A DNA stretch of 64,000 nt, from the NCBI GenBank assembly GCA_000165425.1, contig CT868035.1, positions 1 through 64,000 of the forward strand, in the 5' to 3' direction. This DNA comes from Paramecium tetraurelia. Lineage: Eukaryota. The translations under genes were made by a program, and so were the position numbers. Positions 8,886-58,467 of the stretch are shown in pieces; the stretch's first letter is position 1, and every line of letters starts with the position of its first letter. The notes under the pieces are model-generated. The model made no database searches and was not told the DNA's origin. It saw nothing but the letters and a program-made list of their open reading frames with translations.

Positions 8886-11800
8886 TCAATTTTCTTGATA
8901 TTACAATCTTATTTAACTTTCTAAAATGTAACTTCCTCTTTATTTAAATAATGTTCGTAAATCCATACCTGATTGATTTATAAATTCTCCTTCAAAGATA
9001 AGAGCCCCTTATGATTGAAATACTAACTATTAGGATAGTAGAAGAATAGTAATATATGAAGAAGCTAAAGAATTATGAAAATAAATACCACTTTCTAAAA
9101 GAATATCATTTTTATATTAAGCCAAAATATCTTTGTAGCGATTATATGAAGGTAAGATCTGTCTTTTTTTTACATCCCATACACGGATAGACTAATCAGT
9201 ACTACCAGATGCTAACGTCATACCATCAGGTGAAAAGCAAACTGTTTGAACCCAAGTATCATGACCAACTAGTTTGGCTTTTTATTCTCCTGTCTTAGCA
9301 TCCCATAAACGGATAGACTTATCATAACTACCAGATGCTAATATAGTACCATCAGGAGAGAAACAGACTGATCGAATATAACTATCATGACCATCTAATT
9401 TTTTTATTTATTATCCTGTCTAAACATCCCACAAACGGATGGTTTGATCATGACTGCAAGATGCTAATGTTAAACCATTAGGAGAGAAGCATACTGATTG
9501 AACAGTGTCACTATGACCATCTAATTTGGCTCTTTGTTTTCCTGTCTTATAATCCCATAAAAGGATAGACTAATCATGACTACCAGAAGCTAACGTTATA
9601 TGATCAGGAGAGAAGCACACTGCTATGACTAAATTAGTGTGACCATTTAATTTGGCTATTTATTACCCTGTCGTAATATCCCATAAACGGATTGTCTTAT
9701 CATTACTACCAGATGCTAACGTTTTACCATCAGAAGAGAAGCATACAGAATTAACAATGTAGGTATGTCCATGAAATTTGGTTTTTATTACTCCTGTCTT
9801 AACATCCCAAATAAGGATTTAGTTATCTGAACTTCCAGATGCTAATAGAGTACCATCAGGAGAGAAACAGACCGAAGAGACAGAATTAGTATGACCATCT
9901 AATTTAGCTTTTTATTATCCTGTCTTCCAATCCCATAAAAGGATAGAGTCGTCTAAACTTCCAGATGCTAATGTAGAACCATCAGGAGAAAAGCATAATG
10001 ATTGAACAGTCTGGCTATGACCATCTAATTTGGTTTTTTATTATCTTGTTTTAACATCCCATAAACGGATAGAATTATCGGAACTACCAGATGCTAATGT
10101 ATTATCATTAGGGGAGAAACAGACTGATTGAACTTAACCACTATGTCCATCTAATTGAGCTTTTTATTCTCCTGCTTTAACATCCCATAAACGGACCGAG
10201 TAATCATTACTACAAGAGGCTAATGTCATTCCATCAGGAGAGAAGCAGACTGATTAAACAACACCATTATGACCCTCTAATTTAACTTTTTAATATCCTG
10301 ACTTAACATCCCATAAACGAATAGACTTATCTACATGTCCAGATGCTAATGTAGTTCCATCAGGAGAGAAGCATACTGATCTGACAGTTTCATTTTGATT
10401 TTCTAGTTTTGCTTTTTATTATCCTGTCTTAACATCCCATAATCGAATTGAGTTATCTGCACTTCCAGACGCTAATGTAGTGCCATCAGGAGAGAAGCAA
10501 ACAGAATTTACAAACATTTTATGGCCATTGAATTGCGCTTTTTATTATCCTGTCTTAAAATCCCACAAACGAATAGTGTAATCATTACTACCAGATGCTA
10601 ATGTTTATCCATCAGGAGAGAAGCATACAGATAGGACTTCTCTACTATGATTTTCTAATTTTGCTATTTGTTATTCTGTATTAACATTCCATAAACGAAT
10701 TGATTTATCTGAACTTCCAGATGCTAATATTGAGCCATCAGGAGAGAAGCAAACTGATGAGACAACATCATTATGACCATCAAATTAGGATATTTATTAT
10801 CCTGTCTTAACATCCCATAAACGAATTGATTCATCTTAACTACCAGATGCTAATTTAGTACCATCAGGAGAGAAACATACTGATAGGACTAAATTACTAT
10901 GTCCAACTAGTTAATGTAAATCATTAATTTTCAAATCTGTCCATTTACAATCAAACAATTAAGCTCCAAATAACTTAACTCCATTAATGTTCACATTAGT
11001 GAATATAGATTAACTGAAGTTGCATTTTGCAAAGTTACCACCAATTAAAGAAGTGTCTTTAATTTCGATTTTCTCAAAACTCATATTAGTAAGATCAACT
11101 TTCATTTCAACTAATATATTAAGTGAGTTAGATCCACCTTAAATAAAATTTTTGTCAATCGCTGTTAGATGCACTAGGAATTTTAAAAATTCTATAATTG
11201 AAACATCCTTTGATATTTTTTTGATAAGATATTTTCTTGTTTCAGCATAAATTTCAGTTGAATAATTAATTTAATTAAATTTATGTTTTTCTAGAATTTA
11301 CATAAGTTTCACAGTTTAATCGATGTTCTTTTATAAAGTCTTTAATTTTTATTGCTTATCAAATATTGATAAATCGTCAACCTTAAGACAGAATTCATAA
11401 TTTTGTTGAGATGAAAAAAATTTTAAATCTTTGATATTCTCTTTGGACATAATTTCTAAAATGGATCTAAATATTTGAGTTTAAAGTTCTTTTGATAATA
11501 CTAAAACTGCATATAAATCAGCTGCTATTAAAAATTCTTATATAGATTTATGGACAAATTAAAAGTTAGTACCATTTTATTAGACTAAAGAACAACTTCT
11601 GATATCCTTTTTATACGATCCATATTAACCATCATCATCAAAATATTCATTTAGCCACTTCTCCTCTTCTTTTTCATCTTTGTACAATAACCCTTATTAT
11701 TTAAATTGCACTTAAGTCATTTCTTTTCCGCTCAATGCTTTTGCAAGGTTAGATGAGTATCTTTTTAAATCATGTAGAAACCGATCAACAAGTATTGATT

Positions 11801-14800
11801 TTCCTAAGTTTCTCTATTTTTCTATTTATTTCTAATAGTATTAACTAATAAACTCATCATAAAAGTCATAACTTGTAAGATTGAATTCGTTCAATGCATC
11901 GCAAATAATTTCAACTATATTTTAGTTTTGAATTGCAGCCTTAACAAATGAGATGTCGGATGCCAAAAGGTTATGTTCAAATACCTTTATAAGTTTTGTA
12001 TTTAGATCATTAAATTCTTACGAAAGCTAAAATTGAATAGGAATTGAGTTTTCCTCTAATTTATTCCAAACTTCAAGAGCGATTTCTTAGTAGTTTATTT
12101 TATCCAAATTTTCAACATCAGTTGAAGTAACCTCTAATTTTTCGTCATAATTTTCATGCCAATGGTATTTGTCTATTTCATTATTAAATTCAATTAGATA
12201 TTTTTTCTATTACCATTTATACATTTGAATGAGATATTTACTTTTGTGGTGCTCTTTAAGCATATTTGAGAAATTTTTTATAAAATTTTATTTCAAATTA
12301 GTTAGCTCAGTTGCTTTTGCCATCATTTCTGGCAATACTTAAACTATTTTCTCTGTACGCAATAGGGGAGGGCTCAACCAATTTATTTAGATTTATCTAC
12401 TTCATCAACTTGTCATACTTTTCGACACTCCACAGTTTTTATAATTTTATGCTTAGACTTCTTAAAGCTTCATTACTTTTTAAAGCAATAAATTCATCAT
12501 TCTTCAAAAATTATTAAATGTTCTCTATTTATTTTTAATTCAACAGAGTCTCATCATTTAACTTTGATACTTCTTACTTTTTCAATTATTATAGTAATTT
12601 TTCCCAACAAATTTCAAACTTATTTATATCCATGACTCCTCGATTTGAAATTTCTGTTTACCATTCATATATTTCGAAAATCAACATTTTTATGCTTTGA
12701 ATTGTGAATTTTTTTAGGTATTCCATCATTTAGTTAGAATCAAATTTTAGTAGCTAGATTTCTTTTAATCTTTCCTTTTCATCAGGCGCAAACCATTTGG
12801 CATAATTACTACTTGTAAATATTTCACTTCTTGTGGTAAAAATAACTAGTGGGTCTGACCAATTCTACTTAACTTTATTATTAATATATAAATTTTTCTA
12901 AATATTTTCTAGTTTCATTTCATCATAACTGTCCATTATCAATAAAAATCCTGAAATCCTTCTTTTCCAGCATCTCCTTACATTCTTTCAATTAGAGCTC
13001 GTCAAACCCATACTCATCTTGACGAAGGGCTTCCTCTACTGCTTAAAAAACTGGATTTTTTAAAGAAGGCAAAGAGATATAAATAGGTATGAGTATTTGA
13101 TTACTAATTTTTTTGTTATTGTTTTGTAATTTCCAGATAAATTCTTCTATCTTCTTTGCTGTAGTACTTTTGCCAGATCCTGCTACGCCATGAATTAATA
13201 ATACTGTCTACTTCTGTTCTAATAAAAACTAATTCACTTCTCCTTCGGTATCATTTAATTATTCAAAATTCATCAAAATACTTGATTTTACTTCTTTCTT
13301 TTCCTCCGCTTAATGAAATATCTCTTAAGTTTATAAAGGAACATAAATGGACTTGACATTTTTGAATGCCGCTTCTTTCAATACTTTCCATTTTCTAATT
13401 TCAAACAGCTATTCAACAGATTTTCCCCTTAAAAATTTAATATCATTACCCATACTTTTGAGTTATTCTTTCATTTAATTGATTTTACCCTCAACTCTAA
13501 TCAAGCCTTTTCTAATATGATTTACAAAATCAGTTACCAATCTAAGTTGCAAACCCATTTCACTAATATTTTCTATGTATTCATCTAATTGCACCGTTGT
13601 TTCGTCCATTTCTTTCAACTGTAAATCTCGTTGGTTGAGATTGGCCTCATGAGAAATTTATTCTTATAATTTATCGATTTTATCCAACATCTACTACATT
13701 TTTTCTGCAATTTTATCATGTTAAGTCTACCAATTCCTTGACAAAATCTACATTTATATACTTATCAAATCTGCGTTTTTTAATAAATTACGAACTCTTG
13801 AATCTTTCTCCTCTGTCCACAGTTAGATTAGGGCATTTTAACAAAATTGCATCATTTTATCTGAAAAGCAATTTAAAGAAATCTATATTATTGTAAAAAC
13901 AAGACCCTATTTAATTTTCCATATATAATTATTGTCAAAATCTTAATATTTTTAAATTAATTCTCCAAGTAATCCTGATTTCTAATTTTATTCTTCATCA
14001 AATTCTTCTTCATTTTGCAGTAAGTAAATTTTTCTTAATTTTGAAATGAGAAATTCCTGATCAATTAAATGGTTTGTAAAAAACCCTAATTCATCTAATT
14101 TTTCCTTAATTTAAACCTTTAAATCATTCAAATCAATATTATTTTCCTATTAAGTAACCTCATTTACTTCTAAAGGTAAATTGTCTAAAATTGTTTGAAA
14201 TTAAAGTTGAAATTTTCCGTCTTCCTTTAGTTATTGTTTGACTTTTGCCCATTTCTATTACTCATAGCTCTTAATCAAGGTTAAAAAATACAAATAAAAT
14301 TTTTAATAGAGATTTGCTTGAACTTCTTATTTATACTTTTAAATTTGATCTAATTTGTCAGAAAAAAGAGTAATTTCCTCAAATAATTTTTACAAAAGTT
14401 CCCTTTCTTATTTAATTAATAATGCTTGTAATTTTACAACCTTAATCATGAATTATAAGAACACACTATATGTCTCTTTATTAAAATTCTTAAATTTTAT
14501 TTTATGTTACATCATTATCAATATCTCTAGGAAGTACATCTTTTTCAATTATTTGATGATTTTCTTTTTGTTTTGAAGTTTACTTATTCAGCTCAACTTC
14601 TTCCTATTTCTCTGTTTTTAATATTTATTGAGAAATCCTTCTCTTCACAACTCCCTATACCTCAATATTCTTACCTTACTAGTTTTAGTAATATTGTTTA
14701 TACTCACTTATTTTTCTTTCCAGGTCCCTCAGCTCCTCATTTATGAGTATTTGAAAAATTTCCTTATCTGTGCATTCAAAAGTTTTGAGAGTTTTAATGA

Positions 14801-17577
14801 CACTTTCTGTTTGACTGGTTAATTCCTCATAGTGCAAAATCTCAATTTAACCAATAGTTTTGTTTTTACTTGAATCCTAGATTTTGCTTAATTCAAGAAA
14901 CAAACTATCAAATTTCTCTAGCTCCAATCTCAATTTTAAGAAATTTAGCTTTTCTTCTGTTAGGTTTTTTATTGATTCTGTAAGAGAAACTGCTTCAATA
15001 ATTTTCATCATTTTATCCATTTGCTAAGAGGACGGAAATTCCTCTATCAATATTTCTCCGAATTCTTTTTCTATTAGCTCTAAATCTTAAATTTCTTCTG
15101 AAGTCAATTATTCTTCTATAGATAATTAAAATGAGAAATATTCTATTTATCCTTTTTATTTTGATAGCTTATGTTGATAATCTTATTCAGAAAATTAATT
15201 GGCTGTTAATTCATTAATAACATTTTTGTAAAAATTAATGTTGCAGCGAATAATTTTTTTTGGATACTCTTACACTACTGAAACTAAAAACTCCTTAAGA
15301 TTTACACATTCTTACAATTATTGTAATTCTTATGGTTCTGCTTATGCTAATATTGTGTAAAAAGAATTCCTAAATGCATCTACTTTTAAGTATATTTTTT
15401 AAAGTTTGAAACTAAAAGTTTAAATACAATGAATTATTTTTATGTCACCAAACTGTTATTTTATCTCTTTTAGATTTCCAGGTTTTGAAAGGGTGAAAAT
15501 TTCATATTTTATCCTTAAAGTCTCCTTAAGAATTAATATCAATTCATCACAATCCTTTTTTAGTTCTTAGTTCTTCTCATCATAGTGAGATATAAAGATT
15601 ATTCAAATAAAGTTTTCAAAACATTTATACCAAGTTATTATTATTTTGTAGGAAAGAAATTTCAATATTTTCTACTTCTTTTTTTAAATCAGCAATAAAT
15701 TAAATTAGATTTTAAGCTGCTTCTAAAAAATTTTTTTAATCAAGAGAATCATCTGGTAATGCAAGAAGCTTCATTTACAAATCATTAACCAAAGTCGCTT
15801 TTTTATCCTTTAGTTCAAGATTTTTTATTTCCTATAAAATAAATTCCTTTTGCTCCTTAAGTATTTTAATTGGATCGGTCTTATAATTTTAATTCAATGT
15901 ATGATTTTATTAATCATCAAAGCTAACTTTTAGTTCTTAAATTGAGAATAATAATACATATTCGAGTAGTTTCAACAAAAATTTAAGTTAAAAGAAATTA
16001 TTAAATTCAATTTTCTTGTTCTAATCGATTAGTTCAATTTAATCATTGTTTTTTCTAAAATTTAATTTCATAATTTTAATTAAATATTGAGTGTTTTTGA
16101 AATATTCTTCTAGGTTGAGAATCATCTTTTGTATTTATGAATTATACGTGCTTTGCGATATTCTCTCATTATACTACCTAGTATCTTTCATACAATTTCT
16201 ATATATTTTAACAACTACTCCCAAATTCTCATAATTTTTTTTCATTTTAGATAATAATTTATTTGGAATTATGAAACCTAAAAATTTTTTTATATTTTCG
16301 ATTGCCAAAATATTTTAATTTTTTTATGGTTCTTAACTTCCTACATTTAATTGGCATTTTAAATATGATCCAAATGTAAAAGGGATATTTTGAGATTGCT
16401 CAAACATAAGAAACTCTTTAAGTAATAAGAAGTTTTCCCATTCTTTAAAACAGTTTTCTAATATGAGTCCATCAAGTTAAAATAATCCTTATTTTTATAA
16501 TGAATTAAGTAAAATGACTGCTTAGTCAGGACTATGATCCATTTAAATAAGTAATCCTTTTCTCTAATATTCCTTCCAAATTTAATTTGATGTAACTGTA
16601 AAATTGAAAGAGTTAGCCAAATATGATAATTTTTATTTTGTTAATAGAGGATTATATATTAAGATTTTCCCAATCATTTATATCCAAAGGTAATGATATT
16701 TCCAAATATTTGAATTTTTCACAATTTTATTATAAATTGACTCAAGCTGTAAAATTATTTCTTCTAGATTTTACTATTTTTCATTCTTAAAATAACATAT
16801 TATCTCCCATTATAACATATCTATCTAATAATAAACTTCAAATTATTTTCGATTTTTATTAGCAACATACATTTTGTAAAGTAAGCAGGCTCCTTGAAAC
16901 AATGATTCTAGCAATTCATTATTTGGTTTCATTTAAATTATTGAACCAATAATACCATTTAAGCATCCTTTTAAAACTATTTCCTTTTCTTTCCTATTTT
17001 TTGGAGCAATCTCGAAAGAAGTTTTTATTAAGAAAAGATAGAGTTCCATTTAATTTTGGATTAAGTCATTTTTCTCTATTTCCATTTGTTATCTTAATTC
17101 ATCAGAAATATCCAAAAATTCCTTTTATAATTCACTTTTCATAAATCTCTCGCCATTTATTAAATGGAAGCTAAATATAACTTTAGATAAAGATGCTGTT
17201 GTCTATAAAATATACAAGCACTTAAATGAATCTGTTCTGATGTAAATTAAACAGCTTTTTAGTAATTTTCTGATTCCCTCTATAATTAAATCGTATGACT
17301 TCACAACACTTTAGGCATTTTTGCTTAGTTTATAGATAATTTCTTCTTAAAAATTAAACCACTGGATTGCAATCATAATTTCTTAAGATTCTGATTAATT
17401 AGCAGCAACAGCAGCCTTAGTTTAAATAATTTTGACATAGGAATCAAATTTAGCAATAAAATTTTATATGTCATAACTATCTGATTTGATGTGTTCTGTT
17501 TTTTGCGGAATGACACTGAAGGATCCGCAACCACCTCCGCGCAATGTAGATTTTGCTTAATGCATTTTGAATATCAT
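8886..17577 (-). CDS. Large NLR-like protein (~2870 aa): helical N-terminus, NACHT NTPase, pentapeptide-like repeats, 14 WD40 repeats; disrupted in this consensus
   Basis: ATG 17577 ([19 protein letters not shown]). Walker [10 protein letters not shown] 13163-13189; Walker [10 protein letters not shown] ~12920-12947; IFTTR and FVHKSIQEF motifs; WD40 array 9150-10910; TGA 8886-8888. Probable 22-nt intron 14489-14510, 28-nt insert at ~15600, frameshifts at ~12951 and ~12360. Confidence 0.9.
9150..10910 (-). repeat. 14 tandem WD40 repeats with exact 126-nt period
   Basis: The xWD/WN motif recurs every 126 nt (~9175, 9301, 9427 ... 10813). Consensus [42 protein letters not shown]. Confidence 0.97.
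10950..11110 (-). repeat. Pentapeptide-like repeats between NACHT and WD40
   Basis: [53 protein letters not shown]: five-residue periodicity. Confidence 0.75.
15600..15629. other. Candidate retained IES, 28 bp between TA repeats
   Basis: TATTCAAATAAAGTTTTCAAAACATTTATA. Removing 28 nt and leaving one TA restores the NACHT gene frame ([13 protein letters not shown]) and removes a TGA. Confidence 0.55.
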
Positions 17578-18515
17578 TTTTTCAAAAAAGATAAATAAAA
17601 ATTCCTCCAGTGTATAAAAATGTTTTGAAACCTCGATAAATATTAAACTCATAATAATATATTATATAAACATTGTTATTGATAAATTGCGATTTGCCAT
17701 GTATTCTTAATTTCATCTTGATTTGAGTTGATAACAAAATAGCATTGATTGATTTTCTGTATTATAAGCTACAATAATATTGTTTTTAAATTTTATCTTG
17801 AAGAAAACTGTGATTTGATATATTGATTTGAATTCACGAAATTGATGCTAAATAATGAATTCTTAACAGCAATTAGCTTCTCAAAGAAATTCTGATCAAA
17901 ACGCATAAAAACAAATTTTATAATAGTATTAAATCCTTGACGTCGCCATATTCACTAGGAATTTAGTAATTAAAATACGGTTTTTTTAGAGTTTCAATTA
18001 GAATAAAAATTATGTTTATAACTAATAAAAAAGTAGAAAGAACAATTCTTAGCATCATTTATTCAATGAAAAAAACAAATAAATTTGATCAAAGTTTAAT
18101 AATTAAAAATCAATTTTCCTTAACAAAGATATTCATTTCTTGTGATGTTTACAAGAACAAAGAATGATACCTATTGAAAGTTGTGGCAAATTTATCTTAC
18201 TTCAAATTTTTTCATACCTATCTTTTGAAGGATACTTTTTCACCTATTGAAACTTTAAGAAATTCTTAAAAATTATAAAAACTGAATGTTAAAAATTTTT
18301 GATGTTTGGATTAGGTCTTTTATAATTGTAAACCTATAACCCAACAAGTAGATTTTATATTCATAAACTAATTGATATTAATATTTAAACTATAAAATTT
18401 GCAATGATTCAGAGTAATTATTTAATATACCAAATAATTTAAGATTAAATTAAAATATTAAGGGATCATTTTTTTAATAAACTCAAATAGTTTTAAATGA
18501 TGAAAAAAAGGCAGG

Positions 18516-21003
18516 ATGCGAATTAATTATAGTTATCAACATAGATTATAAATAATTAATAATAATTATTTCCCAGTTTATGAAGGTTAAAAATTGTAAT
18601 TTGAAGTGTATTACATATTAAAGGCAATGGAGATACATATTTTCAATCTATTAGTTTGATGAAATAATTTTTTGAAGATTGCAAATAGAGTATTGTGATT
18701 ACATTATAAATTAGGGAAGCTTTTAGATTATGATTATCTAAAGGGGCAACCAATATAATTCTATGATAAAATACACGAAACCTACAAATATGCTATTTTT
18801 TCTTATATATGTAAAGGTTGGTACAAGTTAATAATTTCAATTAGGGATATCACTAGATTATTTATAAAAATACAAAGAGGCTATTTCTTGCTATGATCAA
18901 GCTCTTAAGTTAAATCCCCTAAATCAGGAATCATTTAAGTATAAAGGTATCCCTTAAATAAATAATATTATTAGGAATTTCTTTATCCTAACTTGGACAC
19001 AATGAGAAATCTCTTTAATGCTACAATTAATGTATAGAGCTAAATCAAAAAGACATAGAAATATATTATCGAAAAGGTAAATGAAATATTAAAAAGAGGA
19101 ATTTCATTACAGTTTTTAAATCGATTTGAAGAAGCTATAACATGTTATGATATAGCTCTATAATTTTCCTCTTAATTTATTGAGAATAATTAGGGTAATA
19201 ACCATCGTTCATTAATTAGTAAAAGCCCAGGTTTAAATTACTCAAAAGATAAAAAATCAATATGAAGATACCATTTCTACTTATAATGAATTTCTTGAGT
19301 AAAATCCAAAACATCTTTAAACCTATATTAACAAAGGTAAAATTAGATCATACTAATGTTTAGGAATATTACTAAGCTAATTAGAGAGATACGAAGAGGC
19401 TTTAATGTGCTATAATTAAGCAATCAATTTGAATGCAAGAAACTTTGATGCATTAAATGGCAAAGGTATGCAATAATTTATTCTATTAGGAATCTCATTA
19501 CATTATCTAAAAAGATATTAATTGGCACTTGATTGCTTTGATAAAGCTCTAAAAGTTAATGCTTCAGAGATTAGAGCACTTGTTAATAAAGGTAGTATAA
19601 GAACTTACATATTAAATTTTTAGGAATTTGCTTAACTCAATTAGATAGGTATTAAGAGGCAATAATATTTTATGATAAAGCCATCATGATAAGCAAAAGC
19701 TTACTTAACTATTTTATTTAAAAAGGTATCACATTGTTATTTTGTAAATAGGAATTCAATTATAAGAAATAATACTTTTTAATAAAGCTATTTAAAATAA
19801 TAAAGAAGAAGGTAATAGCTTTTTTAATCCGTTAGAATTTAAAGATAAATAACAATAATCAATTTAAACATTAACCTTCTCTGATTAGTAAATTAATTCA
19901 TTTACTTAAATTGATAAGATTTATCTTAATAAAGGTAATGTTTATTAATTTATTGTCTTTAGGTGTAGCATTAAGCTAATTATAAAACTATGAAGAATCT
20001 TTATTTTGTTATGAGTAGGCTCAAAAAATAAATGCCATTGATCCAGAATCTCATATTTAGAAAGGTATATTTAATCATTAATGAGGGATTGCTTTGTATT
20101 ATTTAAATCGATTTGGGGAATCAATTACTTGCTATGATTAAGCTATAAAATTGGACTCAAAAAATATCAAGTGTTATCTAAATAAAGGTATTATATAATT
20201 ATTCTATAAATGCAAAGGAATGGCTTTAAATCAATTAGACTAATACAATGAAGCTATAGTTTGTTTTGACAAGGCAATTTAAATAGATCCATAAGATTAT
20301 GAGATATTTTATAATAAAGGTATTTAAGATACTTAATTAGGTGTTTCATTACAATATTTAGAATAATACAATAGTGCTATGTATTGTTATGATCAAGCGC
20401 TGAAACTTAACCCAAAATATCCTGATTTATATATCAGTAAAGGTAGGAAGTATATCTTCATAAATAGGAATCTCCCTACATATGCTCAAACGATATGGTG
20501 AAGCTATCTAATAATATAATTATGCTATTGAATTGAACAAAGAAAATGCGGAAGCTTATTATAGAAAAGGTATTGATGACTGTTTAATAATAACATAGGA
20601 TTTTCATTATAAGTATTAAAGAAATATTAAGAGGCTCTGAATGCGTATGATCTTGCGCTTAAATTTAAGCCATAAGATATAAAGGTAATTATTAATAAAG
20701 GTAGTATATATTTTATTTGTTAGGGATATCTTTAAAAAAAACTTTTGATTTTTAATTGCTTAATGCTAATAGAATAACACCAAGAAGCGATAATTCAGTT
20801 TGATCAAGCTATTTTAATTAACCCAAATGAATTAGATGCTTATATTTGGAAGGGTAAATATTAAAATCATTTTAGGATTCTCACTAGAAAAATAGCATAT
20901 GTATGTAAAGGCAATCCAAACATATAGACAAGTGCAAATCTTATAAGGAAATTAGGAGAATGAATATTAATTAAATATTTTTGCTTGGCAAAAACAGCAC
21001 TGA
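18516..21003 (+). CDS. TPR-repeat protein encoded largely by 102-nt single-repeat exons
   Basis: Repeats such as GISLHYLKRYQLALDCFDKALKVNASEIRALVNK. About 19 short GT-AG introns, those in the repeat array phase 1. TGA 21001-21003. Start codon uncertain. Confidence 0.88.
20733..20762. other. Candidate retained IES, 28 bp between TA repeats
   Basis: Exon 20724-20853 is 130 nt instead of 102. Deleting 20733-20760 yields the 34-aa TPR GISLMLIEQHQEAIIQFDQAILINPNELDAYIWK. Confidence 0.65.
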
Positions 21004-21042
21004 GATAATTCAATTTATTATCAAAAATACAATACTATAATA

Positions 21043-22454
21043 TCATATTTTAATAATTTTTAACAATTTTGTTTTAATTTCATTTAAATTGAAATCATGA
21101 TTTACTTTTTGTTTAAATTATTTCTCTTAGCAATAATTCATGAATTAGCAAACGTGATATCCGCAAGAATAACTGTCAGTTTACTTACCAGAACATTCAG
21201 AGAACTACCTTTTAGGTTTCTCTATTTTTAGTAACTTTTCAAGTGTAATAATTAACTGATAATCTATGTTCATCTAATCAGTAGTAGTAGGCTTTTATAA
21301 TGAGTCAAAAACTGTACAAACATTCTGTTTTAAATCAAAAAGTAGAAAATACCAATGATAGTTATTCTTGTTGACAGGCATACCTATTTATGAGTATATT
21401 TCTTTTAGGTCATAATTCAGATCTTTAAATTATAGTAATTCAGCTTCAAAGATGTCCTTTGTATGTTAATCAGTATAATTTCTTCCAAAATTAGTAGTCA
21501 GAGTAGTTGGTAAAAATAGGATCCTATTTATATTTTATCGATTAATTGTTTTCTATGAAAAATAAGTATTTTCACTTTCTAAATTAAGATACAAAACATA
21601 AGCATCGATAATACTGCTTGTTAATCGTCGATTATTTTCTAAAATCTAAATATCCTTTAAAGAAATTTGTTAGTTATATTTGCACCAACTTTCACAAAAG
21701 AGTGATTAGTTTTGATACTTGTTAACTTAATTGTAATTATTTACTTATAAACCTGTTTAAGCATCAATTATTCTAATCTTTTTGTTAGGGGCGCTTTTTG
21801 ATCTTTAATTTCTTCCATCATCCTTAAAAATACCATTTTCAAATTATCCTTAAAATTTAATAAGAGTAGATTTGCCACAATACTCTTTTCCATTGCCATG
21901 TAATATGAATTCTTTTTTACTTAAGCAAACCATAAATGAGCCTTCTTGAATTTTAAATTTTGGGTTCATATCGTTATCAAATTCAGTAAAATATAACTTC
22001 CCATTTTATACATAATACTATTATGTATTTGAAAAATATTACAATTAAGGCTGTGAGTTGAAATAAAACAGTAATTTCTCAATCATTAAAAGATTCTATT
22101 TAGATTAATTAGTAGAAATAAGATCATATTTTAATTACTCAGCTTAAGTTAAAAAGTTCCTCGGGTCGTTATTTGAAGGTAATTACTAATCATAGATTTA
22201 ACTTGTAGGTATTTTTTGTGAAGGGTTGATAATTGATATTTCACTTACTTTTTATGAAATTTTATTTTATTCTTCAGTTTTGGATTATATATTTATAGGG
22301 TAATAATTATACTATAATTTTTATTGAGTTGAATTGAAATAATTCGATCTTCTATTTCTAAAAAATGAAATGATTATTACGGCGAGATTGATTGAATTTT
22401 TTTAATTCCTTATTCACTTGATACATCTGATATTCGGTAATTTTTGTCGCTCAT
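21043..22454 (-). CDS. Ulp1/SENP-family (C48, clan CE) cysteine protease, ~462 aa
   Basis: ISLKDIQILENNRRLTSSIIDAY; MPVNKNNYHWYFLLFD (catalytic His); VFDSL (Asp); KQTDSYSCGYHV (Gln/Cys). One 23-nt intron 22358-22380; TGA 21043-21045. Confidence 0.85.
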
Positions 22455-23832: not shown

Positions 23833-26800
23833 TCAAGAGGACATGAGTAGTCCGACTACAATTGAGGTAAATCCAAGAATATAACCAGAATCTGTATTGG
23901 TCTCGTTACCAGTGCTTGAATTATTGTTATCAGTATTGTTTGGTTGGACGACAACTGTTCCACATTGAGTACATTTAGAGCTTGCTGGATTCCATGAGTA
24001 AAGATATGCTGTCAAAGTGTAGCAATCTCCTTCCTTTAATGTATCAGCAGTAGTAGCAGTGCAGACACCATTGACTGTTGAGCAAACGTTGTATTTCTTT
24101 TAATCCCAAGTGTAGAAGAATTTGCAACTTTAGACTTAAGCAGCATATGTAGCACAAGTGTGATCAACACAAAGTTTGGTTGTTGCGTTCATTTAGCATC
24201 TATCATTAGCTTATGTGCAAGCATTAGTATCACCTGCTGCTGAAGCGCAACTAGTCATCAAAGAGCATTTTCCAGTTGTGGTTCCTCCAGTGGTGGTTTC
24301 AGTCCAAACACAAATACCATCAGTTCCTTTGGAATTGCAAGCAGTCTTGGTAGCGTATGTTGAGCAGTTAGCTTTAGCAATACAAGCGGTTCCATTTGAA
24401 ACACAATTGGCAACTCCTTAACAAGCTTAGGTTGTTGTACCATTTGGAATATCTGAGCAGATCTTAGTTCTGCAACTTCCAGTAGCATCAGCTGCAACCC
24501 AGAAGCAAGCTCCTTCAGTACCACCAGCAACGTTGCAGGCTCCTTATGTTGTGTAACTATTACAAGCTCCCTTAACGAGACACTTGACTCCATCTGATGT
24601 GCATGTCTTCAATCTGGAAGAGCATTCTGATTCTGTAGTGAAGGTTAGATCTGAACATTATTAATCTTTGCATTATTTGCCAGTATCATCCCAAACGCAA
24701 ATACCAGTTGATGTAATACCTCCATTAGCATCTTTTTATGCTCCATCCTTGTTTCTGAAACATTAGTTTTGGGTATATGTTGAGCAAGCAGCCAATGAAA
24801 TACATCCAGTGACGTAATCAGATGTACAATTTGGATTAGCTGAAATACATTCATCATGAGTTAAGTAGAAAGCATCAGCACATGAGGAAAACTTCTTGCA
24901 AATAGTGTCAGTAGCTCCTTTAGCGGATACTGTTTAGATACATTATCCATCTGTTCCTGTCTTGCATCCTCCCTTAATGTTTGTGGCTGCACAACTTGTA
25001 ATTCCAACACATTCAGTTCCATCAGTTGTACAATTTGAAGAAATCAATTTGCAGTTGGGATCAGAGGTCCAATCTAAACTCTTGCATGATTCATAAGAGA
25101 AGCAAGCTCCAAGGGTAGAATCAGCATTCACATATTTAGCAATCCACAAGCAAGGACCATCGTTACCTTCAATGCAAGCAGATCTAACTTTAATATCTTA
25201 ACAATTAGTCATTTTAGCGCATTTTCCATTTAATCCTGCTGTGCAACCTGTTCTTTGTTTTTAGCAAGCAGCATGGGTTGTTCCAGCAAAATCTTTGCAT
25301 TCTTTTAATCTACAATTATTAGCCTCAGTGTCCCATTAACATTCATTCTTGTTACTGTCAGTAGTACAAGCAGCGGCAACATTAGCAGATGTGCATGCTC
25401 CCTTAAGTGTGCAACCTCCATCTTTCTTGGTGGTACATGTTCCAACTGAAGGTGTAAAATAGGCAGTACATTAAGCTTCAGTTGTCAATGATGTTGGGGC
25501 AGTTGTGCAACTCTTGTTTGTGCAATAGGCATCTTATCCGGTTGGAGTCATCCATTAGCATTGTCTAGTATTTGAATCTGTAACACATCCAGCTTCAGCT
25601 AAAGCTTAACTGCAGGTTCCTCTTTTAACGCAATTAACTCCATTTGATGTACAGGTGGAGAGTGCTGCTTTGCATAAGGCATCAGTTGTTAATGGGAAAT
25701 CTTCACATATTTTAGTCTTGCATTTAATGGCGTCAGTGGTGCAACCAGATAAATAAGTGTCACATTCTGATTCTGATCCAAAATTTGGTGAATTTTCACA
25801 TTTCTTTGTTATGCACTTGCTTTCAGTTGTATCCCAGTAGCATTTTCTCAATGATTTGTCAGCTGATCCTTCATAGCATTGATTTTATGTCATTCCTTCA
25901 CAGGCTTCGGGTATAGCAACGCAACCATTATCTGTTGCGTTAACAGTGCAATTAGCTAAGTAATCCTTACATAAAGTTGGAGTGTTCACAGTTTCTTAAG
26001 CTGTTAAGCAGCTCTTATTGGCACATACAGTTCCATTCCATCCACATAAAAGGTTCACACCTTTGTCATCCTTATCACTACTAACCTTACATTGTCCTTC
26101 ATTAGTGTATGAACTACATGTTTTATATGCAACGCATCCTTAAAGTGTTGGTGTTCCATTGACATCAACAACATTTACTGTGCATCCAGCGAGATATCCT
26201 CTACATCCTTCATGATCATTATAAGATGCAATTGGAGCAGTGGAACATGATATGTCAGCACAAGTAGCTGGATCAGTGTTGGTATTCCAAACACAACTCT
26301 CATCTTTTGCATTTTTCTTGCATTATTCTTCTATTGTATATGAACTACAAGCAGCCTATGGAATACAACCTTGGCCAATTGCCTTTTCTGCAGTTGCTTT
26401 GACTGTACATTTTCCAACATTTTAACATTTAGTATGAGTATCAAAACTTGATGATGCTTCAGCTGCAGCGCAACTTTTATCAACACATTTAGCTGCTGTA
26501 GGATTCCACAAACAATCACCTCCGCTAGCATTCTTAACGCAGGCACCCTAAACTGTATATGAAGCACAATTAGCTCTGAATTAACATCCTCCTGCTCTAA
26601 GAGCACAATTTGTTGAAACTGCTTAGCATCCAGCTAAAGTAGTAACAGTAGAGGCTGCTGAATCACAACTCTTTTAAACACATGATGTTCCAGAAACTAC
26701 ACATTCTCCTTCATTTTTTGCATAACCACACTCTGTAGTAGAATATAATCCGCAAGTATCCTATATGGTGATACAAGCAGTTTTGGCTGCATTAACTGAG

Positions 26801-29800
26801 CAAGTATTTAAGAACCCTATGCAAGCCTCATAAGTAAATGGACCAGTATAACTAGCACAAGTGGGAGCTGTAACAACGGGGGCAGTGATGGCTTCACATC
26901 CAGTTTTATCTGTTTTAACCTGGCAATCATATAATTTACAAATTGCATCGGTATATGAAATTGCTACTGCTCCTGTTTTAAAGAGTTTTACAGCGGGGCA
27001 AGGATCGGAAGCAGCACCATCATATACTTCACATGCAGCACCGGCAGAATTTACAGTACATTTCGTTTCCGTAACTCCTGAAAGACAACCTGTGAAAGGA
27101 GTTAAATAATCAGCGCAATCATCTTATTTCTCAATACAAGCAGTCAATTCCGAATTTACTGAACATGCATCACTACTAATTCCTTTACAATAAGCAGGAG
27201 TCAATCCTACACCAGTTATTGTACCACAGCCGGCTGTAACAATTACTGCTGCCCCAGTAGCATATTTGCAAGTAGTACCACTTAAATAGCATTTTCCTTC
27301 ATCTGAACCTGTACAATTAGCTGCCAAAGTAGCTGCACATGTAGCAACTGTCATCACACATCCGGTTCCATCTCTTTTGAGTGTACATTAAGGGTTATAT
27401 GCTTGACAAGTGTCATAATTGAATGGACCTGTGAAAGCTGCGCAGTTTGCAGTACATTTTGTTCCACTTGTCCATGTACAAGAAGCTTTCTTGCTCTTGC
27501 AAATTCCAGGACCAGTTCCAGCAATATCACTGCATTTAGTTGCATCTACTATTTTGGCACAAGCAGGTCCAGTTGTATTCCAATAACAAAATTTATCAGT
27601 ACTACCCCAAACACAATTTCCTTCTGTCTAACCTGCACAGCTTGCTGTTGCAGTAAGACAACCTGTGCCATCTACTTTCACAGAGCATGTTGCACTCAAA
27701 TATTAGCAATATTCTAGTGTAAATCCTGTTCCTGTAGCTAGGGTGCAGTCGATCGTTGCATTGGCGCATGCTCCACTACTCCATTCACATTATTACTTTC
27801 TGCCTATTGTATGTGCCACGCAAGCACCTTCATTCTTAATTTCTGCACAAGTAGCTTATTTCAAAGCACATTTTCTCTATGTTAATGTACATTTTTTTGA
27901 AAATGTTTAACATTCATCATCATTATCATAACTAACGGAATCTTCTGCATCTGCACAAGATTTATCTTTACAAGTACCACTAAAATTACATACATTTCCT
28001 GCTGTGTCTATTTTGCATTAGCCTTCGACAGTATATTTATCACATGCAACTATATCTTAGCATTTATTTAAAGCTGCATTTACTGTACATGTGCCAATCG
28101 CACCTTTACAGTCATCATGATTGTAAGCATCCAATGTGATATTTGCACAAGTCTTATCTCTACAAGATGCTGATTTTACATCCCAATAGCAATCCTTAGT
28201 TTAAGTATCACTAACTTAAATCAAACCTGACTATTTACAAGCAGCTTCAGCTAATCCACTGCAAGCTTTAGGTCTGGGAATACATTTATCTCCAGCTGTA
28301 TTAACGACACATTTCAAACTTTAATAACCCCAGCAACCACTTTAACTTACACCAGCTTTTAAAGAAACAAGATGTGCATTTTCACATTTAATATCAATGC
28401 AAACTGGAGAAGCAGCATCAGTTTAATCATCCCATTAACATTTTAATGGAGTAATAGATCTAGTTTATTCAATTTGGCAATTATCTTATAATTTTCTTGC
28501 ACCGCAAGTGGCAGGAAGATCAATACAACCCGCTCCATCATTATCAACAACACATCCTGATTTATAACCAGTACATCCAGCACTTGTAGTATAATCAGTA
28601 GATGAGGCAGTAGAACAAGATTAATCGACACAATTTTTTCCATTCAATCCACATTTTCCACCACCCTTTTTAATTTAGCAACCTTCTGTAGTGGTAATAG
28701 CTTCACATTTGATAGGTAAGTCCATACATCCTAAACCTGAATTATCTAAAGTACATGTAGATAGATATGAATTGCACTATGAATGGGTATTAAAGTCTTT
28801 GGATGCTAAGGAACATTACTTTTAATAGCATTTTCCTTTGAATACACAGGGTTTATTATTTAAATCAGTATTACAATTAGCCTCTTCTTAAACATTTTCG
28901 CATGTCTTCTCAACACAAGTTGAACCGCTACCTACAGTACATGTACCTAAAAAGGCATTGCATAATGAATGGTTGTTATTTGAGGTAGGTGAATTAGTGC
29001 AAATCTTAGTCCAACACTTTCCACTATCCCAGAAACAAGTTTTACCAGTACCATCTGTTTTACAGGCAGCTTCCAAATTTATTGCCTCACAAGTTGTATT
29101 AACTCTGCAACCTCCTCCATCTTAAGTCACACATTTTTAATTTGGTAGATAAGCTTCACATTATTCATTTGTTGTATTTGTTTTTGGAGCATTAGTGCAT
29201 GATCTATCTTAACATCCAGAAGTAGCACCAGCTTTTGCTGTGCATGTGGCCATAAATGTAGTACATTAGTCATGTCCAACATATTGACTACCAGCATTAT
29301 CACAGGTCTTGCTTTTACAAGCAGCTCCATCCCAATGGCAGAGAGCTCCAGTTAATGTTTTATCACAAGCATCCTTAATAGTTGCAGCACCACAACCAGT
29401 GTTATCTGTGCATCCACTTCCTGTGGTAATACATTTTTTCAAATAGGATTAGCAACTTGTATTAGTTTTGTTTGTGGCCAAAGCATTTGCACATGTTTTA
29501 TCAACACATGCTGTGCCATTCCAGAAGCACTCTTCATTCAAATTATTGGTAACACATGCTGCTTAAATTGCAGCTGAACCACAATTTGATCTTGTAACAC
29601 AACCCCCACCTTATTTTGTAGTACATGTTGAAATAAAGTCTTTGCAAGCTTAATCTGTAGCCAGTTCAGTTGGAGCATTATCACATGTCTTATCTATACA
29701 TTTTCCTTTACTCCAAAAGCATGCTACTCCTGATTTGTCCTTAACACAACCAATTTCAGCAACTTAATCTTCACATTTAGCTCCCAATTCAATGCAACCT

Positions 29801-30375
29801 CCTCCTTCTTTGGCTGTACATTTAGAAAGCTAAGCTCTGCAGGTAGCATCAGATACTAATGTAATTGGCAATTTAGGGCAGTCATCAGCATCTTCACATT
29901 TAGGATTAGCTGCATCTGCTGTGTTCCAGTAGCAATATCTTCCTAAGGTATTAACAACACATGATTTAGAGGTCTAATAGGTTGAACATGCTGCTTTTTC
30001 GACACATCTTACTCCATCTGTAATACATCTGGTTGAGACTGCTTAACATTTTGCATCATCATCATAGACAAATGGTGTGCATGCAGTGAAGTGAGTACAA
30101 ACCTTGCCATCCCATGCACAAGGGTTTTTCTTTGGACATTCTTCTGCTGTATTGAATTAATCACAGTAAGCAGCAAAAGTTGTTGTATCTGTTGGTGTTG
30201 TTGGTGTTTCAGTCACTGCACATGCTTTTTTTGTTTTATCCCATGTGCAACCAGTTCTTTTTGCACAATCTGTCTCTGTGAGCATTTATGTGCATGTACA
30301 AGTTGTAGCTATTGTAACTGTCTAGCAGTTTGTTAGTATTACTAACAATGCTATCAATAGAATAGTTTTATTCAT
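23833..30375 (-). CDS. Variable surface antigen (immobilization-antigen family), 2180 aa, intronless, probably GPI-anchored
   Basis: Signal peptide MNKTILLIALLVILTNC, periodic Cys-rich units, hydrophobic GPI-type tail SGYILGFTSIVVGLLMSS. 6543 nt; five Cys-rich ORF-track fragments checked along the gene share this frame. Confidence 0.95.
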
Positions 30376-31636
30376 TAAAGTATTAATATTTAAAAATTAT
30401 AAATAAAGGTATTTAAAATGCTTGAGTATTAATAATTTTAGAATTTCAAATAACATCATATTTTTAGATAAATAAATAATCAAAATTTATTCCAGAATAT
30501 AATCTTGAAAATTTGAAATTATTCTTTAAAATAGCGGAAGGCTAGACATAGCTAAGAATGAAATGAAGAAAAGAAGAGTTTGTCTCCCCAACGACAATTT
30601 GACATTGATAGTCCAGCTGTAGATGTGTCCAATCAAGAGTGTAAATATACTTCTTAAAACACATATAAACATTTGTATTTGAGATCATTATCACTTTTTG
30701 TTAATCTTATGACGATAGAATACTTATTAGAAGAGTTTTGATGGTAGAAAGTCTCAATTATTTTTATATCAAACAAAATTTTTATATTTAAGTTGCTTAC
30801 CTCATCAAGGTTATACTCTTCTGATAAAAATTCTTGATAGAAATGTTTTCGGCTGTCCCTTCTGAGGAATTTGATGAGATTATATATTCTTTTTAAATAC
30901 AATTATTTTTCCAAGGCTTTGACTTCACAGAAACCAAATTTGATGTCAAATTCGATAAAAAACAACTAGAACCATTTGCAACTCAGACTATTGCTGTTTG
31001 CTTATCGAAATGGATGCATTCTTAATAAAAGAGTATAAGAATGCTAAAGTACGAAAAAACACTGAAAAGAAACAAGTTAAGAAATGAAGAAATTAAGAAA
31101 ATAAGAAGTAAGAAAGGAAATTACATAAAGACCATCCTTAGTTTGATTATTGAAGTTCATGAGTTATATATGAAATTCAAGTCAAAAGTGTATTCATCTG
31201 AATAATTAATAATCTAGAATTCTAAAACCTTCCGAAAATCGTAGAATAGAAATTCCCTGCGTTATTACTCAAAGTTATTAAAAGCGTTTGAAGAAAAAGA
31301 AAGGACCACAAGTGTTCAATCTATAATAAATTTAGTAAAAAACGACATTTCCTTTATTAATTCAAATCGAATAATTAGTGGCAAAAATAACTCAAATTTT
31401 GGTCAGGGTAATAATTGGCTTTGGAAGAATATTTTGTTGCTACATTTCGTATTAGGTTGGTTAAAAGGAAATAGGTTAAATTAATTTAGAAATTCTTATT
31501 ACAAATACTTATTATATTAATTAATTAATTATAAAATTTATATACTGATTTTTTATATTAGGATATATTAATGAAAGAATATTTTTTGCTAAATATAAAC
31601 AGAAATATCTGTAATTCAAGTATTATTTATAAATAA

Positions 31637-35549: not shown

Positions 35550-36108
35550 ATGAAATCAATTGCAACATTATTCATTACCATCGCAATAGCCTCATGTGTG
35601 TATACACCTGCTGAACGTCAATTCAATTAAGAAGCCCTGACTGGAGCCTATGCTTTTAATAAATTGTCTGAGCCATAACATATTTCAAATTGTGGAGATG
35701 ATGCTACTTAGATTGATCTTTTTAATTTTGTTGGCTATATGCTCCAAAAGGCTGACAAAGCAAGTGTGTCTTAATTATTGGGATTAAAGAAGGAAGTGGA
35801 TGACTACTTTAATGTATTGAACAATGTAATGATTTTAGGGACTTCCCGAAGAATACACAAATTGTTTGTATGCTGAGCCAGAATTTTTGGAGATTTGCAC
35901 TATATATGGATTGAAGGAGACAGACAAGATGGAATAGATTACCGATAAAATTTATCAATATGCGATGGGACACTTCATTGCCACTAAGAAGGAGATTCAT
36001 TAGGGTAATCTATATTGGAACACTTATCACGAATACAATGATGCCGGCTATCTAATTGCCAGTTTTACCAAGAAGGCCTTAGTAACAGGAGTCGAATATG
36101 TTGAATGA
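35550..36108 (+). CDS. Secreted hypothetical protein, ~177 aa
   Basis: Signal peptide MKSIATLFITIAIASC. One 25-nt intron restores the frame to TGA 36106-36108. Confidence 0.75.
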
Positions 36109-36138
36109 TTGTTTGAATAATAACATTATTTATGTATT

Positions 36139-36776
36139 TCATAATGTTTCAATTCTTGCTTCTGATACTTTGGCTTCTTTGCTGTCCCAACCACTGAATA
36201 AATAGGCTGCAAATCTGTAATTTTTGTTTGGGGGCAACTTAAAGGTTATGGATTTGTTGTTCTCTCCAGCTTTTCTGATAGAGAAGACATCCCCATTTCT
36301 AAGACATTCTATAATTTCCCCTTTATGCACTTCGATACCCAAAGATTTCTTATCGAGTGCTTCATCATTGGAGGCAGCAACCACTAAATGATAGATTGAG
36401 CAATATTACGTTTGTCCGAATAGACAATCCACATTCCATGATTCAATCCATAGTTACAGTTTCCGGAAAAGTCAGTTTCCTTGATGATATCGAAATCAAC
36501 AACTCCAATTCCTATGCTCTACGAAATAAATATAAATTTAACTGTTTAAATTGTGTCACAACAAATCTTGACTTTTAATATGTCTTATTCCTTGGCTACT
36601 TCATCCAGAAGAACAAGGCCTCCCTCCTCTTGTTCTTCGACGACAGCTAGATTGCCATGTACTTCAACATATTCGCTTTTGTATGTTGTGCTGAAGTTTC
36701 TTGCTTATGCCAAACTTCCAATTTATTGAAACTGTGGATCACCTATAACTGTGTTGCTGGTTTCGCAATTACCCAT
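36139..36776 (-). CDS. Hypothetical protein with possible SPRY-like beta domain and N-terminal MGNC acylation motif
   Basis: MGNCETS start; IGIGVVD and GEIIECLRNG...YRFAAYL segments; 24- and 26-nt introns. Confidence 0.6.
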
Positions 36777-37176
36777 TACTTTATTAAATAAATGATTGAA
36801 AATATTTTTCCATTTTATACACTAAATTGTTATTAAAGAATTAATCTTAGAATTCTTTAACAAAAAAATTAAATTGTAATCAATAATTAAAAATTAAGAA
36901 CCAACAACTAATTTTGTGAAACAAATACATATCGAAAATGACGATAATATGGGAGATTCCATTTTTAGAATCAGCCATATTATTCGGCAGTTTCTCGATG
37001 GGTATTAAATTACGATATTTTTGAGATTGAATGATGGGGGGGTGAATAGGAGAGTCATCTATGACGAATATTCATTTGATGATAAATATGGATAGATTTT
37101 TTTTATTATATATATGTATTCATTAATATAAGAATGATGTAATAGTTTATGTCAATATAATTTAAATAATATTTGT

Positions 37177-57265: not shown

Positions 57266-58467
57266 ATGCAAAGAAGCCAATCGTTTTCAGAGCTCAAGGT
57301 ATTAAATAATTGCATTCCCATTGAATTCTTTGAACAGAAGGGTCCTCAATACTATTAAAATCAATTTCAATAATATTAAACTATATTCCAATAGAGTTTT
57401 GCTCTGCACACAAGATTATGCCAAACTCCATTGTAAAAGTATCAGAATTACGATTTGGGGAACACTGTAATCAAGTAGGGGACAGTCTAAATTAAAATAA
57501 ACAGCGGGAGTTTCACTAAGACCAGCATCATTTTGACGCGAGAGAAGTTGGTGATTGTGGAGGACAAGCAATGGGGACAAGTATACAATCTCAGGTACTT
57601 GGCCTACACTTTGGCATAGGTATGAATATCCTCATGTATCATGGTTAGTGTAACAAGAATCAGTTTAAATTGTTCAAGTTGGAGTTTAAGCAGTATAAGA
57701 AAATTATAATATTTAAATGCAACGATGAAATTGAGGGGAAGCTGTGGTATTAGAGCATCAGGATGATTGAGGAGAAGTTCTTGAACGAGATAGAGAAGTT
57801 GCAGGTGAAGGAGTTGTACTTTGGAGTGGATTTTGTGAGGGAAGAGGAATTCTTGAATTGGGCAGAGACAGGGGATATTCTATTGTTCGAGTAAGCACTC
57901 AATTATAAGGGAAGGACTGATCATTACATGGCCAAATTGCAAAGAGGCATCACGAGGTCGAAGTTCGATCATGTAGGCATGGTAGTCAGAGATAAGTATT
58001 CAAATGATGTGTTGGTGTTTGATGTCAAAAACTAGGCAGTAAAAAATTAAATTCGAGTTTTAGGGAGTAGATCAAGAGTTCTGGAAATACTTTATGAAGC
58101 AGAACAATCTCTACAGGAAAGTGGCGGTTAGAAAATTGTTGAATGTCGATAGGGAAACTGTAAATTGGAAACTGCTGGAATTTATTGATGTATAATTAAA
58201 AATTACAAGAAAGTTAAAGATTAAGATTACGAAATCAACATGATGAAGCTCCTGCAATAGCAAAGTGATGGACTTATCAACAAAGGGTATTTTTGCAGTG
58301 AGTTGATTGCGAAAGCGTATAAATATTGTGACTTGTTGCCTCAGTAGAAAGCAAGTTCGACTTATTGGCCAGTCACGTTCCAAAAGTCGTTGAAACTCTT
58401 GAATAAGGCCCAGTTGAGTGAGCCAATAGTTATTTTGTTGGATTATGATATACATTATTAATTATGA
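57266..58467 (+). CDS. PH-like domain plus permuted papain-like NlpC/P60 (YiiX/YebB-like) enzyme
   Basis: FKCNDEIEGKLWYQSI (PH C-terminal helix); ETGDILLF, SKFDHVGMV (His) before YFCSELIAKAY (Cys), the permuted order. 5-prime exon structure uncertain. Confidence 0.8.

Follow-up and report, generated by a model that had tools for sequence, protein, structure and literature searches.

The first 64,000 nucleotides of contig CT868035.1 (assembly GCA_000165425.1), which form the window analysed here, are macronuclear DNA of Paramecium tetraurelia with a GC content of 30% and with TAA and TAG read as glutamine. Their minus strand harbors a long gene that combines a NACHT NTPase with an array of WD40 repeats and that we call NLR-like, a label given on domain content and from the sequence only. 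Close to its N-terminus, the encoded protein carries the octapeptide LRGGGCGS, in which LRGG, the C-terminal tail of ubiquitin and NEDD8, is directly followed by Gly-Cys. A first-pass annotation of the bare letters had placed this motif at residues 12-19 and had suggested that cleavage after LRGG, possibly by a C48 protease encoded nearby, might unmask a lipidation site. The placement holds: counted from the ATG at 17577, the minus-strand codons TTG CGC GGA GGT GGT TGC GGA TCC (17544-17521) encode residues 12-19, and the public gene model (P0101, 653 residues, 100% identity) has an identical start. Both P0101 and P0018, the record of the nearby protease, are public P. tetraurelia records on a contig of 245,749 bp and are 100% identical to the window proteins. 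The features of the locus are collected in Table 1.

Table 1. Features of the NACHT-WD40 locus and of its upstream neighbours, in positions of the window.
Feature	Positions	Strand	Remark
Leader MIFKMHQAKST, 11 residues	17545..17577	-	second Met at -7 (17565)
LRGGGCGS motif: ubiquitin/NEDD8-tail LRGG, then Gly-Cys	17521..17544	-	near-invariant columns in relatives
Variable linker of ~15 residues, then conserved N-terminal domain	15619..17520	-	no known family
NACHT-WD40 (NLR-like) gene, ~2,900 codons	8886..17577	-	colinear with the 2,822-residue P. pentaurelia protein P0002
P-loop GVAGSGKST of the NACHT NTPase	13163..13189	-	homologs pass Pfam NACHT at the matching position
Walker B LLIMDSYDE	12919..12945	-	in the P-loop frame only after a 1-base difference at 12950
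WD40 array, 13.6 tandem copies of a 126-nt unit, 74% matches	9172..10884	-	Pfam WD40
Intervening TPR-repeat gene	19018..21074 (approximate)	+	Pfam TPR matches, plus-sense RNA reads
C48 (Ulp1-family) cysteine protease gene, 462 residues	21043..22454	-	Pfam Peptidase_C48; P0018 at 100% identity

In a six-frame translation of the 64 kb with genetic code 6, LRGG is seen once for 0.40 expected occurrences, and the chance expectation of LRGGGC is 2.8e-4. The stretch encoding the motif has a GC content of 67%, compared to 27% for the NACHT-WD40 gene; RNA structure was considered as a cause of this enrichment and rejected (z-score 0.76). Similarly, a short motif shared with a neighbouring gene, in the style of amyloid-signalling NLR/effector pairs, was rejected, LRGG being present only once in the window.

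Conservation is a stronger argument than rarity, and the comparison of relatives indicates that the motif is not due to chance. Three protein searches yielded 16 matches (longer proteins), 18 matches (proteins of similar length) and 56 matches (1.84 billion representatives); together with the cluster members P0110 and P0111, these matches make up the 79 family proteins that were fetched. The motif is found in 36 of these 79, most of the others being N-terminally truncated fragments, and in 27 of the 30 that exhibit a conserved QWF block preceded by at least 45 residues. Of the three remaining, P0057 and P0062 look garbled at the motif and P0103, from P. octaurelia, has LRG, an 8-residue insert (IYTGMEL plus G) and GGGC within residues 5-20. 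We take this insert to be probably a 24-nt intron retained in the gene model; if so, the motif would be interrupted by an intron.

When 25 distinct N-termini are anchored on the methionine at -11, the consensus residues reach frequencies of 1.0 (Leu), 1.0 (Arg), 1.0, 0.96 and 1.0 (the three Gly), 0.96 (Cys) and 0.88 (the following Gly), whereas entropy amounts to about 1-3 bits per column both at the ten leader positions that follow the Met and at the thirteen positions after the motif. Even distant paralogs with 19-26% identity (P0067, P0069, P0072, and P0089) retain the motif, P0067 as LRGGGSC. A tree was computed from 32 sequences that carry the motif, P0089 not among them. P0067, P0069, and P0072 group separately in it, two inner branches (1.05 and 0.72 changes per column) standing between them and the main clade; their terminal branches measure 0.8-1.45 and their path to the main clade sums to more than 3 changes per site, with these branches flagged as long by the tree tool. 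Single departures are encountered in short or fragmentary models, namely GGGF (P0055), RGDGC (P0087), and LLGGGC (P0106), and two paralogs, P0089 and P0106, present Cys-Cys. The motif Cys is followed by a small residue, by Ser or Thr at position 4 or 5, and often by Lys. The original observation is confirmed, and is stronger than a first reading limited to the letters could tell.

The family is narrowly distributed and evolves rapidly. The 20 proteins whose species was looked up and all named relatives belong to only five species of the P. aurelia group, namely P. tetraurelia, P. octaurelia, P. pentaurelia, P. primaurelia, and P. sonneborni; one further relative is known from Logan only, and its cluster includes a P. 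pentaurelia protein. Turnover is fast, the best relatives being only 55-69% identical and many being fragments. A metagenome scan for paralog DNA, intended for a test at synonymous sites, returned 60 pattern matches, none of which is a relative.

The distance between motif and start codon is conserved as well. A methionine occurs precisely 11 residues (26 sequences) or only 7 residues (6 sequences) before the motif Leu in 32/32 close relatives, among them seven whose models have a start further upstream, and the window protein has both. Its ATG at 17577 is preceded by GAAAAA, and the frame stays open as far as 17712, three more ATGs (17700, 17672, and 17651) lying in between. Because the methionine at -11/-7 is conserved in all close relatives, the start probably does not lie downstream of the motif; RNA reads brought no confirmation of this point, as three raw runs, with a depth of at most 1.7x and a 3' bias, have no reads over 17214-17915.

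Two common ways of using such residues do not apply to this protein. Natural precursors of ubiquitin, NEDD8, and ISG15 may have Gly or Cys at P1', and their P4-P1 residues L-R-G-G are identical to those of the Paramecium motif, but they exhibit a folded beta-grasp domain just before the tail, whereas no ubiquitin domain is found upstream of the motif. Indeed, Pfam scans agree with the earlier remark that only 11 residues and no ubiquitin fold precede it: no ubiquitin-family match was obtained in the in-frame upstream extension of the NLR open reading frame (ORF), in 13 further minus-strand ORFs of at least 40 residues up to 19.1 kb, in a 14th one (18536-19423) of which most of the length was scanned, or in paralogs whose models have long leaders. 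The ~1.4 kb from the NLR start to the TPR gene (17578-19017), which is long for a Paramecium intergenic region, present neither RNA reads nor a recognisable minus-strand domain.

Similarly, the protein starts with MIFKM and lacks the Met-Gly start of co-translational N-myristoylation, and no fetched family member starts with MGC or MGGC. An intron creating a Met-Gly start was also considered and rejected, since the sole GT for the 60 nt before the motif is inside the motif. Since a Met-Gly start is absent, myristoylation would need prior cleavage. Elsewhere in the window, the ORF 36027-37058 (minus strand) contains an internal MGNCETS that resembles the canonical Met-Gly...Cys acylation start of a shorter gene model; ordinary Met-Gly acylation starts may thus be in use in this genome.

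Downstream of the motif, tblastn with P0002 aligns colinearly, as a single gene, over 17577 to 8925 and passes through frames -2, -3, -1, -2, and -3 with identities of 55, 38, 62, 76, and 57%. The N-terminal ~650 residues have no match in Pfam, NCBIfam, PADLOC, or PDB sequences; structural leads from the Atlas are limited to helical-repeat folds and are weak (scores below 0.9), the Atlas model itself having a pLDDT of 0.48. The N-terminal region of ~1,400 residues headed by LRGGGC was found only in Paramecium (56 relatives among the 1.84 billion representatives). The NACHT pieces of the window remain under the Pfam cut-offs (AAA_22, 20.2 vs. 27) because a frame break at 12950 splits the domain, whereas the colinear homologs P0004, P0006, and P0010 pass Pfam NACHT (cut-off 26.7 bits) with 31.0, 39.5, and 41.7 bits. 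In homologs this domain lies ~1,400 residues from the N-terminus, and PF05729 appears in the precomputed list for 12 of the 16 long ones. The WD40 repeats are recognised by Pfam in 14 stretches (E 5e-171) and provide the protein with a C-terminal repeat sensor domain. Fungal NLRs of the HET-E/HET-D type also exhibit a NACHT domain followed by highly similar tandem WD40 repeats, as in the Paramecium gene (PMC12222747). The ~1,400-residue N-terminal region with its LRGGGC head sets the Paramecium family apart from them.

The NACHT-WD40 gene is colinear with P0002, but the reading frame changes four times in the window, near 15590-15625, 14510, 12950, and 12385, and these changes are not introns. 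At 12950, one base is missing from five of six RNA reads and from one contig of the run X3, which restores the Walker B frame. Run X3 also lacks bases at 14510, 15587, 15611, and 15624, i.e., at the sites of two other breaks. Independent reads or contigs without one or two bases thus restore the frame at three of the four breaks; the fourth one, near 12385, is seen in none of the listed X3 pieces. The annotated protein is only the 653-residue N-terminal piece because the frame is broken, the public annotation ending at the first break. The window contains either small indel sequence errors or the broken copy of a particular strain. An X3 contig of low depth (4.6) also presents an extra, frame-breaking T at 17498, 23 nt downstream of the motif, which we take as an error or a variant of run X3 because the spacing in the window matches that of all homologs.

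We tentatively propose, as a plausible reading but while rating the chance that the proposal is right as below even, that the head of these proteins is a conserved N-terminal maturation signal, in which LRGG would be cut and Gly-Cys then dual-acylated, in a Paramecium-specific family including NACHT-WD40 proteins. The primary translation product would begin with a leader, 11 or in some cases 7 residues long, that ends in the ubiquitin/NEDD8 tail; a Gly-Gly-specific cysteine peptidase would cut after Gly15, the newly exposed Gly16 would be N-myristoylated and Cys17 S-acylated, and the lipids would tether the N-terminal domain, and with it the entire STAND protein, to a membrane. In this scheme, the cut, the attachment of lipids, and the targeting to a membrane are inferred. 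The conservation of both halves of the motif fits it, as LR-GG would be needless for acylation alone and G-C would be needless for a protease site alone. Moreover, the three invariant glycines would correspond to two for the protease and one acyl acceptor, and exactly three is the number that such a scheme predicts. The combination of Gly-Cys, a small residue, Ser/Thr, and frequent Lys resembles the dual-acylation heads found in many membrane-bound signalling proteins. A DHHC palmitoyltransferase gene is present in the window (58445-59644, plus strand; Pfam DHHC E 6.7e-26), 41 kb from the motif and too distant to be meaningful alone.

Precedents exist. Cleavage of AvrPphB, ORF4, and NopT exposes an embedded P1' Gly followed by Cys, which are then myristoylated and palmitoylated (PMC2708883). 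Together with caspase-cleaved proteins such as huntingtin (PMC9880554), they share with the Paramecium motif an internal Gly and Cys near the N-terminus that become an acylation site only after cleavage. By analogy, a cut-then-acylate motif would belong to a class of embedded acylation sites that is already known. However, these examples are self-cutting bacterial effectors or caspase substrates, whereas the Paramecium carrier is a host NLR-like protein known from sequence alone, with LRGG before the putative cut. Among the coiled-coil NLRs of plants, RPS5 (G2, G3, C4) and PML5 (G2, C3, C4) depend on their N-terminal acylation sites both to localise to membranes and to cause cell death (PMC11467418); RPS5, PML5, and other "PML" NLRs are, as in the Paramecium family, STAND/NLR-type proteins with Gly and Cys. 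Plant NLRs nonetheless start with Met-Gly, are modified without prior cleavage and have an NB-ARC-LRR architecture, whereas the Paramecium Gly-Cys stands behind a leader in a NACHT-WD40 protein.

Several observations weigh against maturation by cleavage and lipidation. An N-myristoylation pattern, G-{EDRKHPFYW}-x(2)-[STAGCN]-{P}, was scored on 31 distinct sequences: it fits only 17/31 if the cut follows LRGG, compared to 25/31 for a cut after LRG and 27/31 for a cut after LR. P5' is Ser or Thr in 17/31 for a cut after LRGG, and Ser, Thr, Ala, Gly, or Asn in 25/31 for a cut after LRG. The window protein itself fails the pattern, with Phe at P5' after LRGG, a caveat already raised in the first-pass annotation and confirmed here. 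For deubiquitinases and Ulp/SENP enzymes of the ordinary kind, recognition depends on the folded body of ubiquitin or SUMO, which an 11-residue leader does not offer. The leader itself is weakly patterned, with Leu at -10 (0.64) and -8 (0.52) and Ser at -2, and its role may go beyond capping the site. If the anchor were purely constitutive, an MGC or MGGC start, which none of the fetched proteins has, would be the easier way to obtain it. In addition, the start codon is supported by comparison, the RNA reads leaving the surrounding interval bare, and the NLR copy, with its four frame breaks, could be a pseudogene in this strain.

The main rival explanation, which we rate as only slightly less likely than this maturation, is that the leader stays in place. 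In that case, the N-terminus would be a flexible tail in which Cys17 carries an S-acyl group or undergoes some other modification or binding, its moderately hydrophobic start (ML-L-h) would provide the first membrane contact, and LRGGG would serve as a recognition element or hinge, its identity with the ubiquitin tail being coincidental. The near-invariance of the Cys in the distinct N-termini, the Cys-Cys pairs of P0089 and P0106, the leucines of the leader and the lack of any fetched member starting with MG and then Cys are in line with an uncleaved tail, as is the preference of ubiquitin-like proteases for a folded body, which speaks against the cutting of a bare tail. On the contrary, it leaves unexplained why an invariant Leu and Arg and exactly three Gly persist at 19-26% identity, as palmitoylation sites have no such sequence requirement.

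Another possible reading of the near-invariant Gly-Cys involves no separate protease. The protein might process itself at the bond between Gly and Cys through an N-to-S acyl shift, as do Hedgehog/Hint proteins or N-terminal-nucleophile hydrolases, with Cys17 as the new N-terminus, and the short, propeptide-like leader of 7-11 residues would suit such a reaction. We deem this highly improbable: Pfam, NCBIfam, and PDB searches revealed no Hint, intein, or Ntn family in the downstream domain, the weak structural leads point to helical repeats only, and the invariant Leu-Arg would have no explanation.

For maturation by an external enzyme, the C48 protease encoded upstream is only one candidate. 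Its gene was reported as intact about 3.5 kb away, and this is borne out: the 462-residue protein is encoded by two exons (22454-22380 and 22356-21046) separated by a 23-nt intron (22379-22357), with the stop codon at 21045-21043, and scores 39.0 bits (347-residue ORF) or 38.2 bits (P0018) with Pfam PF02902 for a cut-off of 20.7. His359-Trp360, Gln417, and Cys423-Gly424 show no variation among 28 paralogs, and the HW, DSL, and C-G blocks align with the active-site blocks of yeast Ulp1 (1euv); Asp376 is present, but outside the 90% list of the paralog alignment. The gene has low-level minus-sense RNA reads. Both genes are on the minus strand, with 3,466 bp separating the NLR start codon and the stop codon of the C48 gene. 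They are not adjacent, because the plus-strand TPR gene, whose RNA reads contain a 32-nt GT..AG joint of an intron at ~19590-19621, lies between them. Just past the protease gene, a surface-antigen gene (23833-30672, minus strand, 2,279 residues) matches Paramecium_SA in 25 stretches (E 5e-208). The window further contains an RCC1-repeat protein kinase gene (54601-56964, minus strand) and a run of 525 N at 1057-1581.

It had been suggested that this neighbour is the dedicated enzyme cutting after LRGG, which now appears very unlikely. In favor of the partnership, the gene is intact and transcribed at a low level with conserved catalytic residues, and the C48 family includes a NEDD8-specific member, SENP8 being indeed among the PDB matches of the paralog profile (E 3.5e-6). 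However, the best match of this profile is the SUMO-specific Ulp1 (9e-12), followed by XopD (6e-7) and SENP2 (2e-6), with ChlaDub1 at 1e-3, and the substrate is not readable from these values; the opposite-strand TPR gene also argues against a paired unit. Co-location in other genomes was assessed by comparing contigs by their size in bp, where equal size is not a proof of identity. Among the matches listed, 54 other family proteins lie on contigs of 49 distinct sizes, and the 30 other C48 paralogs share a single one of these sizes, 240,141 bp in P. primaurelia (P0005 and P0041), P0041 being only 39% identical to the window C48. The contigs of the closest C48 relatives, P0019 (81%, P. octaurelia, 280,681 bp) and P0020 (59%, P. 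pentaurelia, 245,014 bp), agree in size with none of those that carry a family member among the matches listed. According to a rough estimate in which contigs represent ~0.5% of the genome, about one such coincidence is expected by chance. Proximity is the only link between the two genes and probably arose by chance. Overall, the motif, with both halves conserved and its Met start kept, is the part of the first reading that stands, whereas the partnership with the neighbouring protease is left without support.

Proteases acting on bare peptides provide a different perspective on the enzyme that the maturation scheme would need. The adenovirus protease, whose fold is Ulp1-like, is a viral maturation enzyme, whereas the neighbouring protease of the window matches Pfam C48 and not the adenain family; we know of no adenovirus-like virus or element at this locus. 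The adenovirus enzyme cuts short peptides of the forms (M/I/L)XGG↓X and (M/I/L)XGX↓G (the arrow marks the cut), including Cbz-MRGG-rhodamine, with no need for a ubiquitin fold (PMC4246237), and LRGG↓G satisfies both of these consensus forms.

The ubiquitin-tail mimic could also be a bait for the protease of a pathogen or symbiont, e.g., a clan-CE deubiquitinase of bacterial origin or a GG-specific maturation protease from a virus, the cut occurring upon infection only and activating the receptor through the lipidated Gly-Cys. This is improbable in our view, although it would account for the retention of a leader where a simple MGC start would do, and the fast turnover of the family, as well as the high similarity of its tandem WD40 repeats, as in fungal NLRs, are in agreement with it. 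A precedent exists in the tripwires of NLRP1 and CARD8, innate sensors that, as in Paramecium, carry a linear mimic of a protease site near the N-terminus, NLRP1 sensing its cleavage (PMC7857732). In NLRP1, however, N-terminal degradation frees a C-terminal CARD fragment, whereas the presumed working domain of the Paramecium protein is N-terminal and its site is conserved instead of fast-evolving. No pathogen protease is in evidence, and bait sites usually evolve fast whereas the motif is near-invariant, which would still be expected if the host's own ubiquitin tail was copied. At the same low level of likelihood, a ciliate NLR-like family would bait a symbiont or viral deubiquitinase with the host ubiquitin/NEDD8 tail, and the unmasked Gly-Cys would be lipidated and drive the receptor onto the membrane at which it would act, an effector-triggered immunity through protease-gated lipidation in a protist.

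NLRs have been studied extensively in animals, plants, and fungi, and by now also in bacteria, whereas next to nothing is known of how they function in ciliates. In the literature searched, we found neither a description of the LRGGGC motif in Paramecium or in NACHT proteins nor any publication dealing with such NACHT proteins in Paramecium; acylated plant NLRs and acylation unmasked by proteolysis, the latter in caspase substrates and bacterial effectors, turned up only as separate subjects. A strictly conserved head made of a ubiquitin tail and Gly-Cys on a lineage-specific family represents a concrete and cheap experimental handle. If the leader is left uncut, the motif is still an unexplained and strongly selected element. 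If the proposed maturation is true, proteolysis-gated lipidation would control a STAND protein, and one would have to ask which enzyme is able to cut an LRGG tail that no ubiquitin fold accompanies.

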